64,000 nucleotides of DNA from a virus (taxonomy: Duplodnaviria; Caudoviricetes): IMG/VR virus record IMGVR_UViG_3300037424_001651, positions 11,548-75,547 of that record. The stretch is one strand, 5' to 3'. Both the position numbers and the translations under genes were made by a program. Shown one piece after another: positions 10,872 to 49,982 of the stretch; the stretch's first letter is position 1; every line of letters starts with the position of its first letter. The notes under the pieces were generated by a model, which was given only the letters and a program-made list of their open reading frames with translations, searched no databases and was not told where the DNA came from.

Positions 10872-11771
10872 ATGGCCGCTGTTAAAGCGACATCGCCCAA
10901 TCCTCCTCCTGTTCTGGAGGGTGTGGTCGTACGGTTCCGTTTCCGCAAACAGGAGACGGGCTGGGGCGTAGTCGAGCTGCGCGCCATCAATGGAAAACAC
11001 TACACCGTGACCGGCGTGTTTCCTTCAGTTCAGGAGGGTGACCGTATCGAGGTGCGCGGCGAGTGGGTGGCTACACAACGCTGGGGTACGGAGTTCAAGG
11101 CCAGGGAGTTCACGCTCAAATTCGGTGAGGAGGGGCTGTATCAGTTCCTTCGACGGCTTGAACAGATCGGTCCGAAGCGCGCACGTGCCATCATGGACCG
11201 TTTCGGCGACGCTGTGCTCGACGTGATCAAAGACACGCCCGAACGTTTGCTGGAGATTCCAGGGATCACCGCGGATCGTGTGTCGCTGGTACAAGCCACT
11301 TATGCCAAGCTGCAAGAAGAGCAGGAAGCGCTTTTGTTTTTGCAGAGCTTGAAGCTGTCTTCCAACCAGATCGATAGGCTTTTGCGTGTTCACACCGGAT
11401 CGAAGCTGCGTGCGGCTATCGAGGCCAATCCGTATCAGCTTGTCGGGCATGGTGGTATCACCTTCCGGTTGGCAGATGGTATGGCGCAGCGGCTCGGTCA
11501 TGCCCTGGATAGTCCTTATCGGATTCGCGCGGGTTGCTTGCACACCATTCGAGGCGTGCAGCGCCGCGGCCACTCGTATAGCGTGCGTGAGGACTTCGTC
11601 GCCGAGGTAAATTATTTATTGAACGTCGAGGCAGACAAGATCGAGAAACAACTGGATCCGCTCGCTGTCGACAGTTTGCTGATCTTGCAAGGTGATCGTG
11701 TATACGGGCCGCAGCTTTATCGAGCTGAGCAGGACGTCGCGTTCAACTTGCGTAGACTGCGCCGAGGGTAG
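10872..11771 (+). CDS. recD2: RecD2-like helicase, N-terminal part (OB-like domain, helix-hairpin-helix, helical domain)
   Basis: Typical RecD2 N-terminus (GW.V..L...G...V.GEW....RWG.EFKA, IGPKRA..I...FG, ANPY.L...GITF..AD..A..LG, SPYRI.AG), stopping just before the Walker A domain. Confidence 0.85.
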   Translation: MAAVKATSPNPPPVLEGVVVRFRFRKQETGWGVVELRAINGKHYTVTGVFPSVQEGDRIEVRGEWVATQRWGTEFKAREFTLKFGEEGLYQFLRRLEQIGPKRARAIMDRFGDAVLDVIKDTPERLLEIPGITADRVSLVQATYAKLQEEQEALLFLQSLKLSSNQIDRLLRVHTGSKLRAAIEANPYQLVGHGGITFRLADGMAQRLGHALDSPYRIRAGCLHTIRGVQRRGHSYSVREDFVAEVNYLLNVEADKIEKQLDPLAVDSLLILQGDRVYGPQLYRAEQDVAFNLRRLRRG

Positions 11772-34622: not shown

Positions 34623-35669
34623 ATGTACGAGCTTGCATGCCCTAGCTGTATGATGTTTGGCGATTTGGGCGGAGGCGAGATCATGACGAAGACGCTCGTC
34701 CTTCGCGAGCTTCAAGTTGGCCTCGCTGATTGGGGTTTGGCTGATACTGGTAGTCCAGGTGTGTGGAGCGCTAAACTTGGTAGCGCACTCAAGAGCTATC
34801 AACAAGAACGGAAGTATCCGTATCTTACCACCAAGCCGGAATACTGGACGATCTATGACATTGTCGAGCCGCGTATTGGTGAGCCGACGTTCGACATTTG
34901 GTCCCGGATCTATCAGGAAGCGACAGGCAAGACACCGAATGCCGGTGTTTGGCAGGTTCAATTCGCGCTGCGCCAGTTGAAATTCAATCCTGGTCCTGTG
35001 GATGGCTTGTCAGGAACCCAGACGACGAACGCGATCAAGTTATGGCAGAAGATGCACGCTTTCCCGCAAACCGGTGTGCTCTTACCGACGCAAGTATCTG
35101 TGTTGGGGGCCGAGGTCGCAGAGGAGAAGTTGCTTGGTACGCTGCTGGTCACAGCCGAAATCCCGTCTGATACCTTGATCGAGACGATTGATCCGGCTGT
35201 CTCGTTCGAGGATCCGCCTGAAGTTGTAGAAGCGATTATCGAAGCGCAGGCGGCGGGTGTTCCGATCACTGTGCGCGAAGATCGTGCAGTAACAGAACCA
35301 AAAGTTGTGGTTGAGCGTGAGCCGACTACGCAAAAGATCATTTCTGTGACGAAGCTCATTCCAGCTACACCTCCCAAGCCGGTGAATCCGTGGGTGTGGG
35401 TAGGCGTCAGCGCGGCTAGTGTTGTTGCTGTGGGTGGGATCATTGCATTGGTTGTGCGGGCTGTTGGAGCTTCGGCCGCAACCGCTGCGGTTGCGGGGCT
35501 GGGGGCGTACGAAGAAGACCCCCGTGACGCACATCTACGTCGGGTCGGGCGCATGATGCGCGTAAAGGTTCGGCAACGTTCTGAACCGATGCTGTCCAAA
35601 CGCGAGAAGCGCCAGCGTAAAGGTGGTCGAAAAGGCCGTCATGCGCAAGCATGGCGTGAGGAGCAGTAA
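34623..35669 (+). CDS. Peptidoglycan-binding-domain protein with C-terminal membrane anchor
   Basis: Two PG_binding_1-like repeats (LQVGL..WG...G.W...L..ALKSYQ; VQFALRQL.FNPGPVDG..G.QT.NAIK.WQ..H..PQTG), TM helix, basic tail. Confidence 0.75.
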   Translation: MYELACPSCMMFGDLGGGEIMTKTLVLRELQVGLADWGLADTGSPGVWSAKLGSALKSYQQERKYPYLTTKPEYWTIYDIVEPRIGEPTFDIWSRIYQEATGKTPNAGVWQVQFALRQLKFNPGPVDGLSGTQTTNAIKLWQKMHAFPQTGVLLPTQVSVLGAEVAEEKLLGTLLVTAEIPSDTLIETIDPAVSFEDPPEVVEAIIEAQAAGVPITVREDRAVTEPKVVVEREPTTQKIISVTKLIPATPPKPVNPWVWVGVSAASVVAVGGIIALVVRAVGASAATAAVAGLGAYEEDPRDAHLRRVGRMMRVKVRQRSEPMLSKREKRQRKGGRKGRHAQAWREEQ

Positions 35670-36738: not shown

Positions 36739-37258
36739 GCGCGAAGGAGATTTACGGATGAACCCACTGGTAATCGTGTTCCGGCTCGTGACGGGACTCA
36801 CAGAACTTATCGTGCACGAACTCAGGGCGAATCAGGAAGAGGCTGCGGCAGCCAACGTCGAAGTTGCCATGGGCTTCGGCCTCAAGGTCTTCGAGCGCCT
36901 CACCAATGGTGAGCCGCTTGATGAGCTGCTGAACAAGCGCGCCCGGGATCTCATGACCGAGGAGGACGAGTCCGAGGTCGCGGCCGACGAGGCTGTGAAA
37001 CGCGCCAAGAACATGTTCGGGAGGAAGTAGATGGCTAGCGTCAAAAAGATCCGTCAAGTTGCGGAAGCGTGGACACGTTACGAAGACTACCTTGCGCAGT
37101 TTATGGGTTGGTATGCGCTGGACCTGCTCGATGACGCCGAGCGTGATGGCCTGTCAGAGCGAGAAACAGCAGCCATCATTCGACAGATGCTGGAGGAATA
37201 CATTCCATCAACCGTTGACGACGCTTCAAGCGAGTTCTGGCGACAAGCAGGGCTGTAG

Positions 37259-37828: not shown

Positions 37829-38209
37829 GTGAGCTTCGGACGTAAATGGAAGAACTGGGGCGGTTCCAGTGAGACTAAGCCGCGTGGGATGGGCGGCTTC
37901 GCCGACATTGGCAGCCGCATCGTGAGCGCAGGCAAGCTCTCCAAGGCACTCAAGGACGCGGGCCTCTGGCCGCGGACCTTCACAGCGAACGACCTCAAGA
38001 AGGGTACCCCTGCCGCAAAGGACGTAGGCCACGAGATCTTCGGTAGTAGGGCGATGATCTTCATCCATGCACAAGACATGGAGCATCGTCAGGCTATCGA
38101 GCGGTTCCTTCGCCGGGAAGACTACAAGTACAACCGGCGTTACTGGCCCGGCGCACCGGTCGTTGAGGCGCAGGTGTCGTATTTCAAGGGATGGCACTGG
38201 GACGAGTAG
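37829..38209 (+). CDS. FGRKWKNWG-leader protein 1
   Basis: Begins MSFGRKWKNWGG. Confidence 0.7.
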   Translation: MSFGRKWKNWGGSSETKPRGMGGFADIGSRIVSAGKLSKALKDAGLWPRTFTANDLKKGTPAAKDVGHEIFGSRAMIFIHAQDMEHRQAIERFLRREDYKYNRRYWPGAPVVEAQVSYFKGWHWDE

Positions 38210-38220
38210 GAGACAATCTG

Positions 38221-38688
38221 ATGTTCAACCTCACCAAAGCAGACAAGACGGTCATCGCCGCTTTCCTCGACCAGCGCCCGGCCTCGTCGAAGAAGCTCAT
38301 AACGGACGGACAACGTCTTGATGGGCTGTGGATGGGCGGCATGGGAATCGCCGAGTGGCGTGGTCGCCGAATCCTGTTCACGGATCTGGGAAGCAAGGCG
38401 GCGCAGATTGTGCAGCACGCAATCGAGAAGAAGGCTCCGCGCAACTGGCTCGGCGGCTTTGGGCAGGCGCGCGGGCCGGAGTTGGACCCAGAGCAGGAGC
38501 AGATGCTCCACGAGATCGTCCTCATGGCGCGCAACGACGGTCGCTACTATCCCAACCAGCCTGCGATCTCTGTCGAGCAGGCTATAAAGGAATATATCAA
38601 GATCAAAACTGGGGGGCTGCGTGAGGATGCGCAGATCATCCGCCGTGCTGCCGTACGCGAAGTGCAGCACGTATGGAGGCAGCGATGA
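38221..38688 (+). CDS. Two-module protein joined by a GGFG linker
   Basis: WLGGFGQ between two apparent modules. Confidence 0.6.
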   Translation: MFNLTKADKTVIAAFLDQRPASSKKLITDGQRLDGLWMGGMGIAEWRGRRILFTDLGSKAAQIVQHAIEKKAPRNWLGGFGQARGPELDPEQEQMLHEIVLMARNDGRYYPNQPAISVEQAIKEYIKIKTGGLREDAQIIRRAAVREVQHVWRQR

Positions 38689-39470
38689 AACGACGTAGTT
38701 ATGGCAGCAGCGCTGCCGATCTCGAACTAGCACACGAGGCAGTGAAGAAGGCGCGCAACTTTGTGTGGGAAGGCCCGAGCGACGAGTCGGACCCGGACAA
38801 GTGGGCCTTCACAGTCTCGCGGCATCGCGATTCGGGCCTGCTCGACGAGTCCAACTTCGCGACGATCAGTAAGGACATGGAAGCGCGCTTCCCCGATGAC
38901 GTCGAGGTGGTGCATTCCAGCCACTGGGCTGTGGGCTGGATCGACGAGCTTGCCGTGCGCGTCTTCGACGAGCAGGGCGGCATCACCGACGCTTTCCATG
39001 CCATTGTGGACTGGAAAGACAAGCTCGAAGACTATCCTATCGCCGACGAGGACGATTACAGCGAACGCGAACAGAATGCGCTCATCGAACATATCGCTTC
39101 ACAGATCATGTTTTCAGGTTTTACCGTGGATGATCCCGAAGATTGGGCGTATCGCGTGGCGCAGTGGTTGTCAGAGAACGGCTACGACAACGAGCTTGAG
39201 AACATCGATGATCGCGGCGCATACCCAAGCGAGGAAGCCGTTCAGGAAGCACTGCGTGTGCTTACACAAGCGGTTGGGGCGCTGGGTGAGATGGTAATGT
39301 CTGAAACCGCGGACGATGGACTTCGATACTGGTCGGTATATGCCCAAAGGTGGGTTGAGGTATCACCGGGTGGTTGGATACCTGTTGAGGAGTTGGCAGC
39401 GATGTCACCGGCCGACCGGGCACAAGCTATCGATTGGATAGAAAGGACCAGACAATGGCAAAAAAGATGA
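38685..39470 (+). CDS. Acidic hypothetical phage protein
   Basis: RDS.LL..SNF and HWAVGW motifs; GALG linker near the C-terminus. Confidence 0.6.
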   Translation: MKRRSYGSSAADLELAHEAVKKARNFVWEGPSDESDPDKWAFTVSRHRDSGLLDESNFATISKDMEARFPDDVEVVHSSHWAVGWIDELAVRVFDEQGGITDAFHAIVDWKDKLEDYPIADEDDYSEREQNALIEHIASQIMFSGFTVDDPEDWAYRVAQWLSENGYDNELENIDDRGAYPSEEAVQEALRVLTQAVGALGEMVMSETADDGLRYWSVYAQRWVEVSPGGWIPVEELAAMSPADRAQAIDWIERTRQWQKR

Positions 39471-39796
39471 TCATCAGGGCGCGGAGCTTCGAGAAGTGGA
39501 TGCAGGCGAACTTCACGCGGGGCGAGCTTCAGGATCTCGCGCGCTACGGCGCGAACACAGGCTGGCAGGGCTTGACCTATTACAACGACACGGTCGCGCT
39601 CTACGACAAGTTCAACGTTGAGATCTGGACCGCGCTCTACGAAGATGCCGAATCCTTCGGCGCGAAGAACGCCATCGCATTCATCGCTGACTTTGGTGGT
39701 GCAGACAGCGTCTCCGACGACGACACGTTCAAAAACCTGCTCGTATGGTACATGGCCGAGCGCACAGCACACGAACTGCTTGGAGATGATTACTAA
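39455..39796 (+). CDS. Acidic hypothetical phage protein
   Basis: GLTYY.DT..LYD...EIW...NLL.W motif; RBS AAAGGA. Confidence 0.6.
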   Translation: MAKKMIIRARSFEKWMQANFTRGELQDLARYGANTGWQGLTYYNDTVALYDKFNVEIWTALYEDAESFGAKNAIAFIADFGGADSVSDDDTFKNLLVWYMAERTAHELLGDDY

Positions 39797-40560
39797 TGGG
39801 TTTCTTCTCGTGGGACTGCAACGTCTGCGGCCATCCGATGCTTTCACCGGATGCGACGAACCGGACCAACCGGTGGATGGCGGACGTCGTAGTCATCGAG
39901 CCGAACGGTTCCATCTTGATGGGTGAATACGACGGCTACGGCCGCGTGAACGACCGCGACGTCGATGGGGAACCCTGCTGTTACCACCACGCTTGCTGGG
40001 AAGTTGCAGGCAAGCCCACGAAGTACATCCCAAGTGAGTCCGCGCACGATCAGGGGTGGTTCTTCGACGACCCCAAGCACGACATGCCCGATCCCCGCAA
40101 GTCCCGCGGCATGCGCGGCTTCGGGGCCGTGGCACGAAAGATCAAGAAGCAGCTTCCTGATGAGGCCGAGTTCTACGCATACCTCTACAAGAAGAATAAG
40201 GGCATCTTCTATCGCGGGGAAGGTGCGGATGGTCATGGTGTTGGGATGGGTGCGCTGGGTGCAGGCTTGTACGTGACGTGGGAAAAGGCCATGGCGAAGG
40301 CTTTCGCTGACCGGCAGAATAGTCACGTGTTCAAGTACAAGCTCAAGCCCGGCTTGAAACTGCTCGACGCGCAGAGTCGTACGATGGCATGGCTCAAAGC
40401 GGAAATGGGTTTCCATCCGTGGGAGTACAGCGACGACCCCATGTACGCTTTGATGCTCACAGACAAGGTCCGCAGTTTGGGCTACGACGGCGTGATCAGC
40501 GACAAGTTGGCAGATGGGCTTGTGATCTTCAACGCGAAAAACGCAAAGAAGGTGAAGTGA
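39796..40560 (+). CDS. Fusion of a Cys/His module, an MRGFG linker and an ADP-ribosyltransferase-like (ART-PolyVal-like) domain
   Basis: C-terminal FYRG...GAGLYVT....AKAFA...GYDGVI....VIFN pattern. Confidence 0.55.
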   Translation: MGFFSWDCNVCGHPMLSPDATNRTNRWMADVVVIEPNGSILMGEYDGYGRVNDRDVDGEPCCYHHACWEVAGKPTKYIPSESAHDQGWFFDDPKHDMPDPRKSRGMRGFGAVARKIKKQLPDEAEFYAYLYKKNKGIFYRGEGADGHGVGMGALGAGLYVTWEKAMAKAFADRQNSHVFKYKLKPGLKLLDAQSRTMAWLKAEMGFHPWEYSDDPMYALMLTDKVRSLGYDGVISDKLADGLVIFNAKNAKKVK

Positions 40561-41423
40561 TGGGCTTCGGACGCAAATGGAAGAACTGGGGCGACGCGGC
40601 TTCCGACAGGCGCGCGGAAGTCGGACGCATCATCTTCGAGCAGTTCGGCGGCAGGCAGGCCATGGCCATGATCGGCGGTCAAGCCACGTTGCTGAACTTG
40701 CCGCACTACGGCGAAGGCGGCCTCGGCATCAAATGGCCGAACAAGCAGCGCTCCAAGGGAAACTACGTCGAGATCCTCTTGAGGCCCGACGATACGTACG
40801 ACATGACCTTCTACAACCTGACGATCCGGGCCAAGAAGCCGGTCAAGAAGTTCGAGGGTGTGTACGCGGAAGACCTTCGACGGCTGTTCGAGGATCAGAC
40901 GGGTTGGTACCTGTCGCTGGGTGGTGCAGGATTCGGTGCGCACAAGAAGAAGGGTGAGGCTAAAGCCCCCACGATATACCTGACCAAGAGCGGCTCGCAC
41001 TGGCAAGTCATCGCGCACGGGCAGGCTATAGCCCAACACCGCAGTGAAGAGCAAGCGGCGCGTGCCTACTTGTGGTACGGCGGCGTCCCGCTTGAGCCTT
41101 GGGTCTACTTGGGTGGCATCACAGGGGAAGATCGTTTCATCCGCCGCTCTGAACTCTACGCAGCAGGACTCCAAGGCTTGGGAGCACTTGCTCTAGGTCC
41201 GCATCTGACCGAGGCGCAGATTGCAGCAGTGCGAGAAGAAGTCATACGCGAAGGTGTGCCTGTGCGTTTCCTTCACGACGGACAGAACTTGAACATCGTG
41301 ACTGGGGAGTTGCTCCCGCGTGGCACTAACGTCCTGCACCAAATGGTGTACTGGGGCTTCCCGCGGTCGACCTCGAAGAAGATCGCCAAGTGGCTCGGTG
41401 TCAAGGCCGTGTTCTCGGAGTGA
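40560..41423 (+). CDS. FGRKWKNWG-leader protein 2 (three modules separated by GAGFG and LQGLG)
   Basis: Begins MGFGRKWKNWG. Confidence 0.7.
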   Translation: MGFGRKWKNWGDAASDRRAEVGRIIFEQFGGRQAMAMIGGQATLLNLPHYGEGGLGIKWPNKQRSKGNYVEILLRPDDTYDMTFYNLTIRAKKPVKKFEGVYAEDLRRLFEDQTGWYLSLGGAGFGAHKKKGEAKAPTIYLTKSGSHWQVIAHGQAIAQHRSEEQAARAYLWYGGVPLEPWVYLGGITGEDRFIRRSELYAAGLQGLGALALGPHLTEAQIAAVREEVIREGVPVRFLHDGQNLNIVTGELLPRGTNVLHQMVYWGFPRSTSKKIAKWLGVKAVFSE

Positions 41424-41428
41424 AGCAC

Positions 41429-41818
41429 ATGAGCTTTGGACGCAAATGGAAGAACTGGGGCGGCCTGCGTGGGACGTCATGTAGCGAAGCGGATGGGTGG
41501 CTCCCCGAAGCAGAGTGTAGGAAGTACCACCCCAAGTATTTCCGCTTCGAGTGGAACGCGGATCACACGTACTGTCGCCCGCACAGAGGCGATGCGTGGT
41601 GGGACGATGCCTCCTACATCGCGCATCAAACAGGTGTAGATGCGATGGCGATGGAGGATTGGTGGTTCCGCGAGGAGGCACGCCAGCACGAAGCCGCGCG
41701 ACAAGAACAGCGCGAGACGCGTGAGGCGGGCTGGCGGCGTAGAGGCAGTGCGCTGCCGGGGCGCAAGCCACAAAAGTATCGCCGCAGGCGGATCGATGTG
41801 GATGACATCCCCTTTTAA
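41429..41818 (+). CDS. FGRKWKNWG-leader protein 3
   Basis: Begins MSFGRKWKNWGG. Confidence 0.7.
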   Translation: MSFGRKWKNWGGLRGTSCSEADGWLPEAECRKYHPKYFRFEWNADHTYCRPHRGDAWWDDASYIAHQTGVDAMAMEDWWFREEARQHEAARQEQRETREAGWRRRGSALPGRKPQKYRRRRIDVDDIPF

Positions 41819-41827
41819 GGCGCGAAG

Positions 41828-42115
41828 ATGAGCTTTGGGCACAAATGGAAGAACTGGGGCCACCTGCCCGAGAAAAAGATCCTTTGGGAGGAAGCTGCCT
41901 TCCGCATCACAACGGACGGTTCGGGTGCCTACAACATGGAGAAACTACGCGGCCGCCCCACTGACAATCTTCCTGTAGGGAGCATCGAGTATTTTCCTCC
42001 TGAGACGCCATTGGAAGTTGTCATCAAGGAAGCGCGGTTGCTTTGCCAAGCCCAGATTCAACGGCAACGATTGACACGCGTCTATCGCCGTGGTGGACGC
42101 GGACGCGGAAGGTGA
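41828..42115 (+). CDS. FGRKWKNWG-leader protein 4
   Basis: Begins MSFGHKWKNWG. Confidence 0.7.
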   Translation: MSFGHKWKNWGHLPEKKILWEEAAFRITTDGSGAYNMEKLRGRPTDNLPVGSIEYFPPETPLEVVIKEARLLCQAQIQRQRLTRVYRRGGRGRGR

Positions 42116-42118
42116 ATC

Positions 42119-43000
42119 ATGAAATTTGGACGTAAGTGGGCGAACTGGGGCGGCTTTGGGGCGACGCCAACTGCACGCGAGCTGGAAGTGCTCAAGGCTA
42201 TCATCCACAGCGCGTATCACGACGGCGCGGATCCGGTGGACAACCCGGTCTGGTCGTGGTCAGCCCTGAAGAGCCGCAGTGACAACGCCGTCTTCGGTTC
42301 CTTGGTGAAGAAGGGCTGGGCTGGTTCTTCGTACTATGAGGAGAACGAGACAATCGTCTGGATTACGCAGGAAGGCATGAACGTGCTACGCGCCGCAGGC
42401 GGGATGGCCGGTTTCGGTGGTCATGGCGCAGACATCATCGTGGTGGACCGCGCCGGGAATGTGCTGGAGACAGCGAAGGAAGGGATCCCGCGAGCTGCCA
42501 TCGCCCAAGGCCGCTTTGACTCGCGGCGCTTCATCGAGGCGAACCTGCCGTGGTCGAGCGTCGCACGGATGTCTGACACGGAAGTCCTCGGCGTGGACGT
42601 CAGCTTCACAGAGCGGGATAGGCACGTCATCCGGGTCGTCGTGGCAACGCCGGAGCAGCGCGGCCACTGGAAAGAAGGCAGCGCGGACGATTGGGAATTG
42701 TACAGCAAGCCCGGTAGGAATGCTGCTGCCAAGGGCCTGAATGCAGCGCTGAAGAAAGCTATGAAGATGATCGACACCACACTGGTGATCGGGGACCTGG
42801 ACTTGCAGCCAGAGGACATCGCAAAGATCGCGAAGGTGATCTCCAACGCGTACGCGAAGTACATGGCTCCGGCGCTGATCAAGTATCGAGCGCTGGGTGC
42901 CGGAGATAGCGAGGGCTACTACCACGCGAATCAAGCGCTGATCGACCACGTGAAGCGCGCAAACGGCTGGTGGGACATCGACTTCAGAGACTACCTGTGA
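42119..43000 (+). CDS. FGRKWKNWG-leader protein 5 (modules separated by MAGFG)
   Basis: Begins MKFGRKWANWGGFG. Confidence 0.7.
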   Translation: MKFGRKWANWGGFGATPTARELEVLKAIIHSAYHDGADPVDNPVWSWSALKSRSDNAVFGSLVKKGWAGSSYYEENETIVWITQEGMNVLRAAGGMAGFGGHGADIIVVDRAGNVLETAKEGIPRAAIAQGRFDSRRFIEANLPWSSVARMSDTEVLGVDVSFTERDRHVIRVVVATPEQRGHWKEGSADDWELYSKPGRNAAAKGLNAALKKAMKMIDTTLVIGDLDLQPEDIAKIAKVISNAYAKYMAPALIKYRALGAGDSEGYYHANQALIDHVKRANGWWDIDFRDYL

Positions 43001-43049
43001 TGCACGCGCCGCTCACAGTTGTCCCGACCCTGCCTCAAGGAGTAGTACG

Positions 43050-43532
43050 ATGACGACACGTTGCACAGTTGAGATCTGGGCTGCTGATATGCGCGTACCA
43101 ACGGTGAGTCTATATCATCACACCGATGGTGATCCAGGCTTCATGGGTCCGAAGCTCGAAAGGTTCATGAAGTACATCATGAAAGTGTTACCATACCGAC
43201 ACGACGAAGCGGCGACAGTTGCAGCGATGCTCGTGAAGCTCTCGTCCGATAATTATGATGGGCCGGTTGAACCGAATACTGGACCTGTCGAAACCTGGAT
43301 TCCGAAAAATAGCGAGGTGATGGGGGCACGGGCGCTGATTCCGTTCTTCCATCCGACGTGTGTGGTGCACTGGGACATCGCTTACTTGTGGCGTGTCAAA
43401 CTCGGGAAGGTATACGCAAAGAATAGGGGCTACAAGATCGAGTGTTATGTACCCAGCTTTGATTATGAAACAGGTGAGGTTCTCGATCTGAGGAAGGTCA
43501 ACTGGAAGGCTGAGGCAAAGAAGAGGCGTTGA
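43050..43532 (+). CDS. Hypothetical phage protein
   Basis: LYHHTDGDP motif; RBS AAGGAG. Confidence 0.6.
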   Translation: MTTRCTVEIWAADMRVPTVSLYHHTDGDPGFMGPKLERFMKYIMKVLPYRHDEAATVAAMLVKLSSDNYDGPVEPNTGPVETWIPKNSEVMGARALIPFFHPTCVVHWDIAYLWRVKLGKVYAKNRGYKIECYVPSFDYETGEVLDLRKVNWKAEAKKRR

Positions 43533-44131
43533 TGTACGCTGTTGGGCACATGGCTGGATTTGGTGCGACCGCTGAGAAGCGGCGTGTGGACGTCGTCGGT
43601 CTATACCCCGAGGAGAATAAGTACCTCGGGACGGTGTGGAAGGTGTTCTACACGGGTGCAGTGTCTACTATGTACCCGAGCGAACGTACATTGCGGTTCG
43701 TGAACGAATACTTCGCGACGAAGTATCCACATGTTCCAGCGACGGCTGAAGCACATTTCAAGCTTGATGGGACGATGGACTACATGGAGGTCTTCGCACC
43801 GTTCGCGGTTGGGCCTCGTCCGGCTCCGGTTTCGTTGCCTTATACAACGGTATCGATCCCAGTTGAGATTCGTTATGGGAGCTATCTCATTCGTACAACT
43901 GGTTTTCGTACGAGCTATTTGTCGGAGCGTAGTATTGCGTTCCTTAACGCATGGGTTACTTCGCAACAGCATTGGTCGGAGAAGTACAAGTATGAATTCT
44001 GGAAGCCGAAGGATGTGGTAGTGCGGTTGGATGCTGTGACTGGACGTCCTGACAAGATAACCGTAAACGTTGGCCTTGGATCACTCGCGGACGCGAGCAA
44101 GGCGAAGGAAACCTACCTCGCAATGTTGTGA
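43532..44131 (+). CDS. Hypothetical protein with MAGFG N-terminal leader
   Basis: Begins MYAVGHMAGFGA. Confidence 0.6.
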   Translation: MYAVGHMAGFGATAEKRRVDVVGLYPEENKYLGTVWKVFYTGAVSTMYPSERTLRFVNEYFATKYPHVPATAEAHFKLDGTMDYMEVFAPFAVGPRPAPVSLPYTTVSIPVEIRYGSYLIRTTGFRTSYLSERSIAFLNAWVTSQQHWSEKYKYEFWKPKDVVVRLDAVTGRPDKITVNVGLGSLADASKAKETYLAML

Positions 44132-44157
44132 GGAACCAGAAAGAAGAGGAAGCTAAA

Positions 44158-44559
44158 ATGGCCCAAAAAACAAGTAGCAAGAAGCGGACGAGTAGCAAGA
44201 AGCGGACGAAGTCTGGCGACAAGTGCAAAGGCAAGATCTACTGGAACGCGGTCGCAATGGCGCAAGGGACCAAGCATAAGACGGCTGCAAGTACGCAGGT
44301 CGATCATTGTGTCCGTACTTGTCGTGTCGGGCGCGATGTTTGCGAAAGCACTGTGAAGTCCGGCCTGAAGGGGCGCAGGAAGGCTCGCAAGAGCGGTGTG
44401 CCTTATGGACGCAAGCTGTCGCAGACCAAGGCCGCGAAGGCGGCTCGTACAGGCTTCAAGACGGCTTCCAAGTCGTGCAAGCGCGCGAGCAAGAGCCGAG
44501 TGGGCTTCCTGTCCTGCATGAAGAAGACGGCCCCGAGGGAGATCGCGAAGAAGATGTAA
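44158..44559 (+). CDS. Highly basic Lys/Arg-rich (histone-like) protein
   Basis: SSKKRT repeated twice (18-bp tandem repeat 44173-44208), very high K/R content, several Cys. Confidence 0.6.
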   Translation: MAQKTSSKKRTSSKKRTKSGDKCKGKIYWNAVAMAQGTKHKTAASTQVDHCVRTCRVGRDVCESTVKSGLKGRRKARKSGVPYGRKLSQTKAAKAARTGFKTASKSCKRASKSRVGFLSCMKKTAPREIAKKM

Positions 44560-44594
44560 GCAGGGTCAGGAACAATTTGAGGAGGAGGGTCACC

Positions 44595-45140
44595 ATGGCC
44601 GAGAAGTGGCGACGTTTTACTGCGTCCGATAATCCGTGGTCCCACGAGCCAGCAGAAGGTTGGCGGTCCAAGAACTGGGAGATTATCTTCCGGCCGAACT
44701 TCCATATCGTGTCCGGCTTGGTCCGGGCACGGTATGTGCGGCCCGACGGGTATTTGCCGTGGGCTTACTTCCTTGTTTACAGCAGCGGCAAGCTTGGGTG
44801 GGACTGGCCGGAGCGCGTGCCGAAGTATGTTGAGGACAAGGTCAACGCCTTGACGCGCGCGCAAGCTGGATCGTTTGGGGACGGCGCGCCGAAACGTCAG
44901 GGATATCGAGTTTTATACGCTCCGTTGGGTTCTTCCCGAAAGGTAGAGTGGAGCACACACGCAAACGCGCGTGAGGCAGTGAAGGAAGCACGTCGGTTGG
45001 TCCGGCATCGCGGTGTTTCAGGGGCACACGCTCGGTATGCACCGTGGATCAGCGTCATCGTTTTGGGGCCGCGCGGTAAGCTTTACTACGAGGGTTGGAA
45101 CGAATTATTCGGCCCATCTGAGAGTTGGCGGGACGTTTAG
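44595..45140 (+). CDS. Two-module hypothetical protein (GSFGD linker)
   Basis: RBS GGAGG. Confidence 0.55.
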   Translation: MAEKWRRFTASDNPWSHEPAEGWRSKNWEIIFRPNFHIVSGLVRARYVRPDGYLPWAYFLVYSSGKLGWDWPERVPKYVEDKVNALTRAQAGSFGDGAPKRQGYRVLYAPLGSSRKVEWSTHANAREAVKEARRLVRHRGVSGAHARYAPWISVIVLGPRGKLYYEGWNELFGPSESWRDV

Positions 45141-45155
45141 GAACAGGAGGATGCG

Positions 45156-45545
45156 ATGAGAAGACGAACTTTTGGTTTGGCAGCATGGCCTGAGTTGCAG
45201 CGGATCGGTGGCGTTGATGATCTCGTGCTCAGCGACGATGACATCATCAAACTGAGTCGCCACGTGACGGATCGACCCGGTGGTGGCGACAGCCCACTTG
45301 CGTCCTTGCTGGGTGCGTGCCTTGTCTGGCGACGCGGCACGAATGCAGTTGGGAAGGTCATAGGCGGCGCGACCGCGAACTTCGTGGCTTACCACCTCAG
45401 CAAGGGAAAGTCCGAGTCTTGGATCGTCAAGAGTTACCGTGCACATGTTGGCCGGGTTCTTCGCGCCGAGTTGAATAAGCAGCAAGCGGAGTTCGACTCC
45501 TACTTCGAGGAGTTGTGGGAGTTGCGGCAGCATCGCCGCCGCTAA
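45156..45545 (+). CDS. Hypothetical protein
   Basis: RBS AGGAGG. Confidence 0.55.
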   Translation: MRRRTFGLAAWPELQRIGGVDDLVLSDDDIIKLSRHVTDRPGGGDSPLASLLGACLVWRRGTNAVGKVIGGATANFVAYHLSKGKSESWIVKSYRAHVGRVLRAELNKQQAEFDSYFEELWELRQHRRR

Positions 45546-45571
45546 AGGAGTAGACGTGATGACTCTGTTAC

Positions 45572-46753
45572 CTAAAGGAGACAGCTTCTAGGAACATGCA
45601 GACCAACGTCCACATTACGTCCCTCCGGCTCCATCCAAGCCGGGAGTGCGCGCGCGAGGATATTTCTCGCCGCGTTCTCGTCTCTGTGCAGGACCAGCCC
45701 GCAATGCGGACACGAGTGTTTCCGCTCGCGCAGCGTCTTGGGCACCTTCTGGCCGCAGCCGCTGCAATCTTGGCTTGTTCCTGCGGGATTCACAGCCACA
45801 ACCTGCGTACCGGCGCTCTCAGCCTTGTACTTCAAGATGTTCAAGAACTGGCCCCAGCCAGCGTCTCGAATCGCCCGGTTCAACCAGCGGGGACCGCCCA
45901 TCGTGGTAATGGTCAAATCCTCCACGGCGATGAAGCCGTAGCGACGGATCAATTCCAGAGCTTCTTTGTGATGAAAGTCGCGCCGCTTGTTCGCGACGTG
46001 CGCATGCAGCGCCTGCACGCGTCCCTTCGTCTTCGCCCGGCGTTTGCTTCCGGGTTTGGCCCGGGCGAGCGCTTTTTGCTTGCGGCGCAGCGTAGGCAAG
46101 GTGTCTTTGAGAAAGCGCGGGTTCGGGATCTTCGCGCCATCAGGATGCGTGGCGAAACGCTCCAGCCCCAGATCGATCCCGGTCTTCGGCTCGTGAGCGC
46201 GCTCTTCAGGCAAGATTTTCGGCGCGCCGACGTCACAGGAAAAGACGGCGTACCACTTGCCTGCTTCGCGCTTGATACAGACGGTTTTGATCTCGCCTTG
46301 CAACGGCCGGTGCAACTTGATACGCACCTTACCGACGTACTGGACGCGCAGCCTCGGGTGTGCCGGGTCGAGCAGCACAATTCCATCCCCATAACTCGGA
46401 AGCGTGAACGAGTCGAAGCGATCTCGGGGCTTGAAGCGTGGGTAGCCCGGCTTCTCGCCCGGTTTGGCCTTTTTGACGCGCCGGAAGAACGCCTCGAAGG
46501 ACTTGTTGAGCTGACGCAAGGTAGCTTGCGCGCTGGAGAAGTTGAGCCGGGCGAAGTAAGCGTTCGAGCCGCGTTCGGCTTTGTACCACGCAGATTGTTC
46601 AGGGTAATTGACGCTACGTCCTTCGGCTTCCCAGCCTGCTTTGCGCTTAGCGAGGGCGACGTTGTAGAGGCGGCGGTGGGTTTCGAGCATGCTCGAAAGC
46701 TCCCCGATCTGTACCTTGTTGGGGTACAGACGGTACTTGAAGCTACGCCTCAT
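45572..46753 (-). CDS. tnpB: RNA-guided endonuclease TnpB
   Basis: FKYRLYP, GIDLGL (RuvC I), AVEDL (RuvC II), TSQ.CS.CG, CPHCG...RDENAA.N. Confidence 0.97.
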   Translation of the reverse strand: MRRSFKYRLYPNKVQIGELSSMLETHRRLYNVALAKRKAGWEAEGRSVNYPEQSAWYKAERGSNAYFARLNFSSAQATLRQLNKSFEAFFRRVKKAKPGEKPGYPRFKPRDRFDSFTLPSYGDGIVLLDPAHPRLRVQYVGKVRIKLHRPLQGEIKTVCIKREAGKWYAVFSCDVGAPKILPEERAHEPKTGIDLGLERFATHPDGAKIPNPRFLKDTLPTLRRKQKALARAKPGSKRRAKTKGRVQALHAHVANKRRDFHHKEALELIRRYGFIAVEDLTITTMGGPRWLNRAIRDAGWGQFLNILKYKAESAGTQVVAVNPAGTSQDCSGCGQKVPKTLRERKHSCPHCGLVLHRDENAARNILARALPAWMEPEGRNVDVGLHVPRSCLL

Positions 46754-46756
46754 ACC

Positions 46757-47173
46757 TTATTTACCCTTCTGGGCCTCGATATATTCACGAACTGTCTTCT
46801 CGTTGACGTGTCCGACGGTCCCGGCGTAGTAGCTTCGACTCCAGAGGGTCGGCAAGCGCGAGCGCAACGCCGGGAATTTTTGACGCAAGATGCGCGAGGT
46901 CGATCCTTTGAGGCGGTTGATGATCTCGGCCACGCACCAGCGAGGATCGGCTTCGACAAAGAGATGTACATGATCGGGCATGATCTCCAGCGTGTGTACA
47001 GTCATGTCCAGCGTATCCGCCTTTTCACGCAGCAAGACTTCGAGTCGCGCAGCCACATCGTCGTCGAGGACGGGCCGACGATACTTGGGGCACCACACGA
47101 TGTGATACTTCAAGTTGAAGACGGCTCCGGCGTTTTTGCTGCAGCGAGCTTCCATGCCGCACAGTATACACAA
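46757..47173 (-). CDS. tnpA: Y1 (HUH) transposase TnpA
   Basis: YHIVWCPKYRR, PDHVHL, KG.TSR.LR and LWSRSYY. Confidence 0.97.
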   Translation of the reverse strand: MCILCGMEARCSKNAGAVFNLKYHIVWCPKYRRPVLDDDVAARLEVLLREKADTLDMTVHTLEIMPDHVHLFVEADPRWCVAEIINRLKGSTSRILRQKFPALRSRLPTLWSRSYYAGTVGHVNEKTVREYIEAQKGK

Positions 47174-47250
47174 GACAAATACTTAATCAAGAAAGCAGGG
47201 ACTGCATTCCTCCGCCACCTGAAGGAGGCGGTCCCCTGCGGGAGAAGATT

Positions 47251-47688
47251 ATGGCTGGACCGAAGAAGACCGAGAAACGCGACCCGGGCGATCCGCTTGA
47301 GGTTGTCATACAGCCGATGCTGGAAGTGCCGAACCGAACCATCTTCTATGTGCGCAAGGTCAAGATCTACAAGCTTGGTCTGGTAGCATACGAACGCATG
47401 GCGAAACAAGGCATCCAGCCTAAATTAGCTTCGCAGGCGTTCATGGGCACGCCGCGCTATTGGCAGCTTCGCCGCCGGATCCGGCAAGAGGCTGGCTACC
47501 GCGATGATGGGTCGGGCAAGTTCATTTACCTGCCTGACGGTTACCGTGAGCGTGTGCAGGCCAACGAGAACGAACTGCTCGACGCTTTCTGGTCGGGTTG
47601 GTACGGCTGGGGAATGCTCGACCGTGGCGGGAGCATCGAGAACGCGAAGTACGACGGCCGCTGGCGCATGACCGTAGGAGATTTCTGA
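47251..47688 (+). CDS. Hypothetical protein
   Basis: ORF after the IS left end. Confidence 0.55.
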   Translation: MAGPKKTEKRDPGDPLEVVIQPMLEVPNRTIFYVRKVKIYKLGLVAYERMAKQGIQPKLASQAFMGTPRYWQLRRRIRQEAGYRDDGSGKFIYLPDGYRERVQANENELLDAFWSGWYGWGMLDRGGSIENAKYDGRWRMTVGDF

Positions 47689-47986
47689 TAGTGCCGAAGA
47701 TCTATGGAAAGCTGGCGGGTGTTTTACAGGCGCGTGATGCGGCGGGCAAGTTGATCAAGCCCGTGCGGCGCATCGGTATGACGAGTATCGAGTCAACCCT
47801 CATGACGCACTATGGTGGTTTGACGTTGACGTTGGACGCGCGCGGCTACTTCTGTTTGGTAGCGCAATCGCGCAGCGGAGAAACGCTAGCTGTGCAGGAA
47901 GGTAATGTACACGCGTTGCTCGACGCCGCTGGATTGTTGGAACCAGAAGTATTGGAAGCGCTCTTGAGCGAGGAAGAGCTGCACTG

Positions 47987-48634
47987 ATGAGTTGGGGCCG
48001 CTGGAAAGCGTGGGGTAGCTTGGGCGAACGCAGGTTCGATTCGCGCCAAGCGGCGCGGAAACCGGTACGCCCATTGCGTGTTCCAAAACCATACGAATTG
48101 CCTTCCTTCGTACCGCCTGTCCGTCCTGGTGCTGGGCGGCATGAGCATTGGACTGAAAAGCAGGTTTACCCGGATTTGCTGCGGTTTGCCGCCGAGGTGC
48201 TGAAGTTTCGCGATCCGCGACTCAAGAGCCACTTTGCGGATACAGGTAATGTCGACGCTATCGTGTACGACGCTGGGCGGCGTAGCAAGCCCTGTGCACG
48301 GTTCGAGGTCAAGAGCGCGCAGCCTTACGTCAAGGATGTACACGCACGTACAGGACGTCGTGTGGGCCGTTATCAAGTCAGCCCGCGTCAGCATGCGCTA
48401 CACAAGACAGGTGTTTGCGATTTGTTCTACGTGCTTGTGCCAGTTCGGGACGAGAAGATCGAGCATGTGGGCATTTGTAATGTACCGATGATCGAGAAGG
48501 TGTTGGAGAAACCGCTTACCACGGCTATCGGTATCCATCGTATTGGTGGGTTCGAGTGCCCTGGCGTGGATGACTGGGTCAAGGCCCAGCGGGCACAAAA
48601 ACGGCGTAGAATAAGTGATACGCGTGAATTTTGA
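47987..48634 (+). CDS. Leader-variant protein (MSWGRWKAWG) with PD-(D/E)XK nuclease-like region
   Basis: NVDA......FEVKSAQ motif after the leader. Confidence 0.5.
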   Translation: MSWGRWKAWGSLGERRFDSRQAARKPVRPLRVPKPYELPSFVPPVRPGAGRHEHWTEKQVYPDLLRFAAEVLKFRDPRLKSHFADTGNVDAIVYDAGRRSKPCARFEVKSAQPYVKDVHARTGRRVGRYQVSPRQHALHKTGVCDLFYVLVPVRDEKIEHVGICNVPMIEKVLEKPLTTAIGIHRIGGFECPGVDDWVKAQRAQKRRRISDTREF

Positions 48635-49136: not shown

Positions 49137-49982
49137 GTGGCCAAAGGACCATTCAATAAGATGTCTAACCGCGAGTTGAACCGGTGGATCGGGGAGTGGG
49201 AGGCGCAGGCCCCGGAGAACTTCTGGATGGACGGTCTCCACGCAGGAGGCTTTATGCGTCGGCAGGCCGCCTACAAGATGTACCGTCGCGGCTGGCGGAT
49301 GCGATCCCCGGCCGAGCAACAACGCATGTTGGACGACTTGGGGCGTAGCGCCTACTACGGCTATGGTGGATACTACGGCTATGGTGGATACGGCCAGGAA
49401 ATCTACCCGGAGCACACAGCCATTGGTCGGCGTGGGAAGCCGTCACGTCCGGCGCGCTATCTCGTCGAGAAGTGGCTGGAGGCGGGGCCATTCCGGTCAA
49501 TTTCACCGCAGCGTCTCTCGATCCTTGACTATGGCTGTGGTCGCGGCACCGACACGCAGTGGTTCATGTCGCTGGGCTACAAGGCGCACGGCTACGATCC
49601 GGTGCCGTCCGCTGACGTGCCCTACTGTACCGGCAAGAAGCCACGCAAGAATTACCACATCGTGTTCGTCAATTACGTCATCAACGTCGTTCCGACCTTG
49701 GAAGGACGGATGGGGTTGCTCAAGTCTGCGTGGGACTGTGTCCGGCGTGGCGGTTTGCTTTATGTGACCTCGCGTCCGGTCAAGGACGTCGAGTCTGGTG
49801 CAAAGAAGGGCAAGTGGAAGCGGCACGGGGACGGTTGGTACGTCCCGTCGACGCAGACCTTCCAGAAGGGCCACAGCAACGAGGAACTCATCGAGATGGC
49901 CTCGATGCTGCCCGGCGCTGCGTGGGTCCACAAGTTCGCAGCCAGTGGCTGGGCTGGCGTGATGGTCGCGAAGAAGAAGTAG
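49137..49982 (+). CDS. Class I SAM-dependent methyltransferase with N-terminal module and (YYGYGG)2 linker
   Basis: LDYGCGRG.D, GYDP, YVINVV, GDG....TFQK; resembles DNA phosphorothioation-associated putative methyltransferases. Confidence 0.75.
   Translation: MAKGPFNKMSNRELNRWIGEWEAQAPENFWMDGLHAGGFMRRQAAYKMYRRGWRMRSPAEQQRMLDDLGRSAYYGYGGYYGYGGYGQEIYPEHTAIGRRGKPSRPARYLVEKWLEAGPFRSISPQRLSILDYGCGRGTDTQWFMSLGYKAHGYDPVPSADVPYCTGKKPRKNYHIVFVNYVINVVPTLEGRMGLLKSAWDCVRRGGLLYVTSRPVKDVESGAKKGKWKRHGDGWYVPSTQTFQKGHSNEELIEMASMLPGAAWVHKFAASGWAGVMVAKKK

Follow-up and report, generated by a model that had tools for sequence, protein, structure and literature searches.

A candidate N-terminal tag and Gly-Phe-Gly joints on interchangeable protein modules of an uncultured virus

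This study investigated a 64,000-nucleotide stretch of viral DNA (Duplodnaviria; Caudoviricetes), hereafter the window, which comprises positions 11,548 to 75,547 of the IMG/VR record IMGVR_UViG_3300037424_001651, a linear and incomplete virus record of 75,547 bases, and focused on a group of genes in the window whose otherwise unrelated products begin with nearly the same short peptide. Sequence comparisons demonstrated a lineage-specific two-part peptide code on interchangeable modules, consisting of an 11- to 12-residue N-terminal tag, M-x-F-G-R-K-W-K-N-W-G(-G), and of joints with the consensus hydrophobic-x-G-F-G. The joints link independently folding modules. This second motif, which joins modules behind the tag and lies at homology breakpoints and in disordered linkers, is new here.

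The tag, with the consensus M-x-F-G-(R/H)-K-W-(K/A)-N-W-G on the contig, opens five genes at positions 37829 (GTG start), 40560, 41429, 41828, and 42119. A first-pass annotation of the window had reported five near-identical gene starts, and these were recovered both in the open reading frame listing and with a degenerate DNA pattern for F-G-R-K-W-K-N-W-G, which, with up to three mismatches allowed, matched exactly these five sites, no other site on either strand, and nothing in 100 dinucleotide shuffles. Profile scanning of the entire 75.5-kb contig in six frames detected no further copies. The mean pairwise DNA identity was 85.5% over the 33 bases of the leader, compared with 33% over the 33 bases on each side, and the alignment revealed that conservation starts at the start codon and stops after codon 11. 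Every tagged start is served by a purine-rich Shine-Dalgarno-like run or by a TGATG overlap with the preceding stop codon, and because an in-frame stop codon lies one to three codons upstream of the tag in 37829, 41828, and 42119, the tag is necessarily N-terminal in these three genes. The tag is basic and Trp-rich, and its end often takes the joint-like form W-G-G-(F/L)-G. The residues directly after the five tags are G-G-S-S, D-A-A-S, G-L-R-G, H-L-P-E, and G-F-G-A. The protein bodies are unrelated, as had been proposed: all-against-all blastp aligned residues 1 to 11 only (17 at most), and no pair at E ≤ 0.05 was found among 18 modules stripped of leaders and joints. A secretion signal, a lipobox, a prepilin-type G↓F site, and a double-glycine leader were each considered by reading the sequences by eye and rejected, given that no hydrophobic core follows the tag and no matching consensus is present.

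A variant leader (47987-48025, ending in W-G-S-L-G) opens a further plus-strand gene of 215 aa at 47987-48634. The variant, which is present as the first-pass annotation described it, shares M-S-x-G-R-W-K-x-W-G with the canonical tags and has one residue missing. Its kinship with them is partly supported: small-database blastp aligned it with canonical tags at E values of 0.006-0.07, yet an independent profile of nine canonical leaders did not list it and scored it below the best shuffled-sequence scores (2.3-7.5 bits). On these comparisons, 47987 is a probable diverged tag gene. Its AlphaFold2 model was unusable, with a predicted local distance difference test score (pLDDT) of 38.

We further searched for the tag on foreign proteins. 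A profile (A2) built from six N-termini was run against 1.84 billion representative proteins and returned six, three from this contig and three foreign singletons (P0004, P0005, and P0006) whose first 12 residues are identical; this profile recovered the tag nowhere else. A word-index search with the cargo of 37829 retrieved two more tagged proteins, P0009 and P0012, as well as P0008, in which the cargo sits behind a joint; the identity of this cargo to its homologues in P0008, P0009, and P0012 is 54-86%. The leader profile search across proteomes that the first-pass annotation had proposed thus revealed the same tag on foreign proteins with different cargo. The five foreign tagged proteins, all of which derive from short contigs, were counted as bearing five different first modules, and ten different first modules stand behind the tag when the contig and these five metagenomic proteins are combined. 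The same homologues bear on the start of 37829, whose public gene call (P0007, 106 aa) begins at the internal ATG at 37889 and leaves the tag out. Because the leader is conserved and the homologues P0009 and P0012 carry it, the GTG at 37829 is better supported than the ATG at 37889. Other searches were negative. The DNA of the tag was scanned for in IMG/VR with two patterns lacking the start codon and in JGI metagenome contigs and GTDB genomes with the wider of these patterns anchored on the start codon, and the only three matches (L001, L002, and L008) were rejected as chance hits lying out of frame within other genes. When residues 1-40 of gene 41429 were used in a word-index search, only the 41429 protein itself was returned; tblastn of 42119 gave no match, and tblastn of 40560 recovered only its PHROG 9437 domain, found in large or jumbo phages that lack the tag.

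The tag is far better conserved than the cargo behind it. P0004 and P0006 are identical at 12 of 12 tag positions with 71% identity in their shared module; the cargo of gene 40560 is 80% identical to that of P0005, and the cargo of 37829 is 54% identical to that of P0009 and 64% identical to that of P0012. Where cargo identity is 54-80%, the tag is identical at 10 or 11 of 11 positions and differs at most at position 2. Among the contig tags, four of the seven silently changeable positions vary, compared with three of the 20 others (one-sided p = 0.05), although the within-contig statistics rest on five tag copies and are weak. Because silent positions vary more than replacement positions, the sequences indicate that the peptide is what is selected. 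Silent sites are nevertheless more alike than random codon choice would give (44 of 62 codon pairs identical versus 30 expected, p ~0.006), with the rare codons GGA and AAA retained in the tag; shared ancestry, gene conversion, or selection acting at the 5' end has therefore also left a mark. The synonymous-site comparison that had been suggested thus argues for a peptide signal and retains a DNA-level trace, and the claim of a peptide-level tag on interchangeable, unrelated cargo is borne out by the ten first modules, the degree of tag conservation, and the mainly silent variation.

The joints were analyzed in the same proteins. Gly-Phe-Gly occurs 8 times in the proteins encoded at 35.9-50 kb compared with 1.1 expected (0 of 500 shuffles reached this number) and 9 times in the rest of the contig compared with 3.0 expected, where at least one occurrence belongs to a different known motif, the RNP1 of an RNA recognition motif protein. 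G-(F/L/W/Y)-G occurs 19 times in the region, compared with 5.8 expected. In 14 of 16 joints, a hydrophobic residue stands four positions ahead of the final Gly, and the codons at the joints vary freely. The tag itself can run into a joint, as W-G-G-F-G in 42119 and P0006 and as W-G-G-L-G in P0004 and P0009.

Comparison of relatives revealed that the homology break always falls right at (F/W)-G. P0005 consists of the tag, a 95-residue module, the joint V-G-G-F-G, and the domain that in 40560 stands directly behind the tag; in the alignment, the F-G of P0005 falls on the tag-ending W-G of 40560, and the homology ends just before the next joint of 40560. P0004 and P0006 have the tag and first module in common and diverge approximately 10 residues past H-F-(D/G)-G-F-G. 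The cargo of 37829, which ends in W-H-W-D-E, is separated from the tag by a short linker in that gene and stands behind three different modules elsewhere, joined through L-R-G-F-G (P0009), F-Q-G-F-G (P0012), and A-G-F-G-G-G-F-G (P0008). Two-module proteins with swapped partners comprise 39796, 40560, 42119, P0004, P0005, P0006, P0009, and P0012. Other phage lineages carry both cargo domains either as free-standing proteins or in fusions with neither tag nor joint; the cargo of 37829, for example, occurs as leaderless stand-alone proteins (P0010, P0011, and L042-L048). The AlphaFold2 model of 40560 has block-average pLDDT values of 77-94 across residues ~21-120 and values below 50 at residues 1-14 (the tag) and 121-137 (the joint), which flank the folded domain, and the tag of 40560 is probably disordered in this model. 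A 570-aa protein of an IMG/VR relative (L004, 1610-3319) combines the PHROG 9437 domain and a 38191-like domain with repeated motifs and has no tag and no G-F-G joints; nothing informative was found in the neighbourhood of its gene.

For the function of this arrangement, we tentatively favour a sorting tag combined with protease-type joints, working like the capsid-targeting sequence (CTS) of phage T4 yet unrelated to it. Because neither a receptor nor a protease was found, we hold this explanation to be possible and short of probable. The tag would serve for sorting or loading: through it, many unrelated modules for host takeover or anti-defence would dock to a single receptor, for which the inside of the capsid under assembly is the most likely candidate, and the exposed G-F-G joints would be cut by one dedicated protease, which would remove the tag and separate the modules. 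The 33-bp block and the joints would probably also have aided module swapping by recombination. In T4, the CTS and the head protease treat the internal proteins likewise. The confinement of the tag to the N-terminus, the selection on its peptide, the position of the joints at module boundaries, their partial fit to a viral protease consensus, and the effector-like look of some cargo speak for this explanation.

The internal proteins of T4 are diverse defence proteins that have only the capsid-targeting sequence in common (PMC3012670). Similar to the proteins described here, those of T4 (IPI, IPII, IPIII, and Alt) share an N-terminal peptide of approximately 10 residues as the sole common part of diverse, fast-evolving accessory and defence proteins, the end of the tag coincides with a processing-type motif, and the cargo is interchangeable. 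The two tags have no sequence similarity, however, the present one being basic and Trp-rich, and it is not followed by a conserved (L/I)-x-E, the motif of the T4 head protease gp21. In contrast to the present proteins, in which modules are concatenated through joints, T4 internal proteins have no internal joints; on the contig, moreover, no head genes were recognised, and packaging and cleavage are predictions. By sequence and motif, the tag falls outside the T4 CTS family, and it may work like one. In the giant phages SPN3US and phiKZ, the prohead protease cleaves N-terminal propeptides from ejection proteins packed in the head; the cuts fall at a short motif that recurs, and, as with the joints, several motif copies per protein are possible (PMC10052503). 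Those propeptides comprise 20-254 residues and are not a shared tag, and their motif ends in Glu rather than in G-F-G.

Processing into separate domains has also been proposed for polyvalent proteins (Iyer et al. 2017, PMC5512222). Similar to the present proteins, they combine unrelated effector-type domains in one polypeptide that are shuffled between relatives, although the conflict-type nature of the domains is a prediction in our case, and an ART-PolyVal-like module is present here according to predicted structure (Pfam does not recognise an ART domain). In contrast to polyvalent proteins, the present proteins are small (one or two modules, 95-349 aa), no embedded peptidase domain was found in them, and their genes do not neighbour genes for virion proteins, packaging, or conjugation. 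A search of that paper (PMC5512222) for linkers and N-terminal signals turned up neither a shared N-terminal tag nor a defined joint motif such as those seen here. The joints were also compared with the site consensus of the adenovirus protease (AVP), (M/I/L)-X-G-X↓G and (M/I/L)-X-G-G↓X (PMC3386624). Six of the 16 joints, including M-R-G-F-G and M-A-G-F-G, fit the first form exactly, and the P4-equivalent position is the one found to be hydrophobic in 14 of 16. The Phe before the last Gly is near invariant here and free in AVP sites, and F, V, or W often replaces M/I/L; AVP belongs to peptidase clan CE, of which no member was found on the contig, and the present virus is bacterial. We consider it distinctly improbable that the arrangement amounts to a tag-and-cut system new to bacterial viruses, in which effectors would be loaded into the particle or a phage-made compartment, an adenain-like protease would cut the joints, and accessory genes would have been rebuilt as small polyproteins.

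Several findings weigh against the sorting-and-cutting explanation. No capsid, portal, terminase, tail, or protease genes were recognised on the 75.5-kb contig by Pfam or PHROGs, and the same holds for a scaffold or core protein and a prohead protease, the record being linear and incomplete; no match to Peptidase_C5 or C48 (clan CE) at E ≤ 1 was obtained in six frames. The contig thus has no recognisable structural or protease genes, and the proposed receptor and protease are without a candidate gene. The tagged genes sit amid replication and accessory genes. Because the cargo modules are free-standing and untagged in other phage lineages, they work without sorting, and joints also occur in the untagged proteins 38191, 39796, and 43532. 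Ten of the 16 joints miss the strict AVP consensus. Finally, five of the eight contig joints have a Met two or three positions ahead of the Phe, which could be the relic of a former start codon or an internal start, and the public gene call of 37829 starts at such a Met. The CheckV completeness of the record is 83%, yet structural genes are unrecognisable in 75.5 kb; either this estimate is mistaken or the structural genes form an unusually compact or a novel module. Taken at face value, 83% leaves room only for a compact morphogenesis module. Given that no tailed-phage structural genes were recognised on the contig, the virus may also be something other than a standard tailed phage.

Other explanations place the tag elsewhere in the cell. 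It is possible, and in our assessment unlikely, that the tag is an interfacial amphipathic peptide that would tether cargo to the cell membrane on its cytoplasmic side, or to a membrane made by the phage, with the joints as flexible linkers. When the tag is modelled as a helix, F2, W6, and W9 lie on one face, the hydrophobic moment is 0.56 for the consensus (permutation p 0.08) and 0.64 for 42119 (p 0.03) compared with 0.33-0.34 for permutations, and the peptide carries a net charge of +3 and has a favourable Wimley-White interfacial energy; a gene with a peptidoglycan-binding domain (34623-35666) also lies a short way upstream of the tagged block. We take its composition to be like that of Trp/Lys-rich membrane-active peptides and of short membrane-targeting sequences of the MinD or FtsA type, which are presumably likewise short, basic, aromatic, and amphipathic as a helix; the tag ends in Gly-Gly. 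Membrane-targeting sequences of this type are mostly C-terminal and not common to unrelated proteins, however, and the helicity of the tag, unlike theirs, is doubtful: three of its 11 residues are Gly, which disfavours helix formation, the consensus does not reach significance in the periodicity test, and the 47987 variant has no helical moment (0.11). A membrane role is not obvious for the likely cargo (winged helix-turn-helix (wHTH)-like, single-stranded DNA-binding protein (SSB)-tip mimic, and ART-like), and the specificity of the joints, with G-F-G and a hydrophobic residue three before the Phe, would be left unexplained. We also considered, as quite an unlikely explanation, that the tag is a short linear motif recognised by a single host or phage partner (a chaperone, protease adaptor, or polymerase, for instance), or that cut joints would expose bulky hydrophobic N-termini and so time the destruction of modules through the bacterial N-degron pathway. 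A tag that is short, probably disordered (as judged by low AlphaFold2 confidence), strictly conserved, and position-specific would suit such docking, and the free-standing homologues in other phages show modules acting in the cytoplasm. The central residue of the joint-like motifs is F, L, W, or Y, at the excess given above, and these are the primary destabilising N-terminal residues in bacteria. Docking or turnover gives no reason for one motif on many unrelated proteins unless timing or location is shared, and no docking partner was identified.

The remaining alternatives deny the peptide or the joints a role of their own. That the 33-bp block is only a nucleic-acid element, namely a recombination patch, a translation-initiation region, or an operator region with the peptide as a by-product, is very improbable. 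The likeness of silent sites and the retained GGA and AAA codons would fit it, as would the tandem arrangement of four leader genes, the Sak4-like annealing protein encoded on the contig, and the insertion of modules exactly at tag and joint boundaries. By contrast, silent positions vary more than replacement positions, the peptide remains identical in distant relatives whose cargo identity falls to 54-71%, and the joint codons are varied. Furthermore, the RNA fold of the tag block is neither stable nor shared (z -0.2 to +1.7), the block has no Rfam match, its complementarity to the structured RNA of the phage at 23630-23814 is not beyond that of shuffles (a weak test with odd duplex output), and no reverse-complement copy of the tag is present in the contig. 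The DNA-level alternative raised in the first-pass annotation is therefore disfavoured as the main function, given that codons vary and no RNA structure or family was found; the 33-bp block may have served as a recombination patch. Also highly unlikely, in our view, is that the joints are never cut and represent fusion scars or internal starts that make modules both alone and fused, the tag being the inherited N-terminus of a family whose bodies were replaced. In addition to the Met residues near five contig joints and the internal Met used by the public call of 37829, genes 41429, 41828, and 42119 lie in one frame and are separated by only a stop codon plus one to three codons, and because they share a frame, the loss of a stop would create an internal tag copy. 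Foreign joints, however, mostly have L, V, or F in place of Met, no internal Met codon of a joint has a good ribosome-binding site before it, and a functionless inherited N-terminus would not stay identical while cargo falls to 54% identity.

Should the tag prove to be a loading signal, it would supply the T4 capsid-targeting principle with a second, sequence-unrelated example, from an uncultured phage lineage far removed from T4, would label a set of proteins of unknown function as probable injected or co-localised effectors, and would provide a portable tag for loading foreign proteins; together with the G-F-G joints, it would define a rule for the assembly and reshuffling of phage accessory modules. 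Whatever the destination, the tag and the joint together make a useful key for searches, with which unrelated orphan proteins of different metagenomes were recognised as one system.

We further examined the cargo modules. Searches of Pfam and PHROGs with all tagged and foreign proteins recognised nothing beyond PHROG 9437, and most modules are orphans. Leader gene 1 (37829-38209, plus strand, as are the following genes; 126 aa), supported by the DNA pattern and by its homologues, comprises the leader (37829-37861), a joint-like G-M-G-G-F-A (37886-37903), and the cargo of approximately 100 aa. In leader gene 2 (40560-41423, 287 aa), the leader (40560-40592) is followed by the PHROG 9437 domain (residues ~13-118), the joint L-G-G-A-G-F-G (40917-40937), and a second module; a fold search with the model of the PHROG 9437 domain returned non-specific matches, the best with a Z of 8.1 in the noise range, and uncharacterised viral proteins. 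Leader gene 3 (41429-41818, 129 aa; leader 41429-41461) ends in an acidic, SSB-tip-like D-V-D-D-I-P-F (41795-41815), preceded by an Arg-rich stretch. Bacterial SSB recruits partner proteins through its C-terminal tip, and a tip of this kind is absent from the SSB candidate of the phage itself (23043-23621); the tail of 41429 may be a decoy for SSB-binding host enzymes. Leader gene 4 (41828-42115, 95 aa; leader 41828-41860) has His instead of Arg at position 5. Leader gene 5 (42119-43000, 293 aa) comprises the leader and first joint (42119-42160, ending in N-W-G-G-F-G), module 1 (residues ~15-95), the second joint G-M-A-G-F-G (42401-42418), and module 2; the Atlas model of module 1 weakly matches wHTH folds over residues ~11-95, between the two joints.

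The untagged gene 39796-40560 has the joint G-M-R-G-F-G (40108-40125) between its N-terminal module and an ART-like C-terminal module (40126-40560). The predicted structure of the latter resembles ART-PolyVal, RES, and MuF-fused clusters with TM-scores of 0.57-0.62, and its closest viral clusters reach ~0.8. The joint occupies residues 105-110, and the Atlas matches begin at residues 105-136 (119-135 for the closest viral clusters); the Atlas feature score reaches 0.94 for a cluster with ART-PolyVal in 20% of its members, and no Pfam hit to an ART domain was obtained at E ≤ 0.01. Other phages fuse the ART domains that this module resembles to the packaged MuF protein, an indirect hint at routing into the virion from a protein that is itself untagged. 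Sequence and predicted structure taken together, some of the cargo looks like host-takeover effectors (ART-like, wHTH-like, and SSB-tip mimic).

Nearly all contig genes lie on the plus strand, and the neighbours of the tagged genes are replication, nucleotide-metabolism, and unknown genes. Pfam and PHROGs recognised a family A DNA polymerase, helicases, a primase, ThyX, exonucleases, the Sak4-like annealing protein, and RNase H, in addition to a Ro60-like protein and methyltransferases. A blastn search of 37-45 kb against GenBank phages gave no match, and no IMG/VR relatives were found through the DNA polymerase. An IS200/IS605 element (TnpA and TnpB, 45572-47173, minus strand) lies inside the phage accessory region. 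The closest relatives of its TnpB, at 54-59% identity, are from metagenome-assembled genomes of Gemmataceae (Planctomycetota), which is a weak hint that the host may be a Planctomycetota bacterium.

Joints on the plus strand outside the tagged genes and 39796 comprise N-W-L-G-G-F-G, like the end of the leader, in gene 38191-38688 (38443-38463), and H-M-A-G-F-G at residues 6-11 of gene 43532-44131 (43547-43564), the product of which has an 11-residue N-terminal peptide that is unlike the tag in sequence and ends in the same joint. The methyltransferase-like gene at 49137-49982 has a tandem Y-Y-G-Y-G-G near its N-terminus, in a G-Y-G-rich linker broadly like the joints. Gene 36758-37030 (plus strand), directly upstream of the tagged block, contains A-M-G-F-G (36866-36880) and ends in M-F-G-R-K followed by TAG (37013-37030), a stop codon where the leader has TGG; this end is possibly a decayed copy of the tag.

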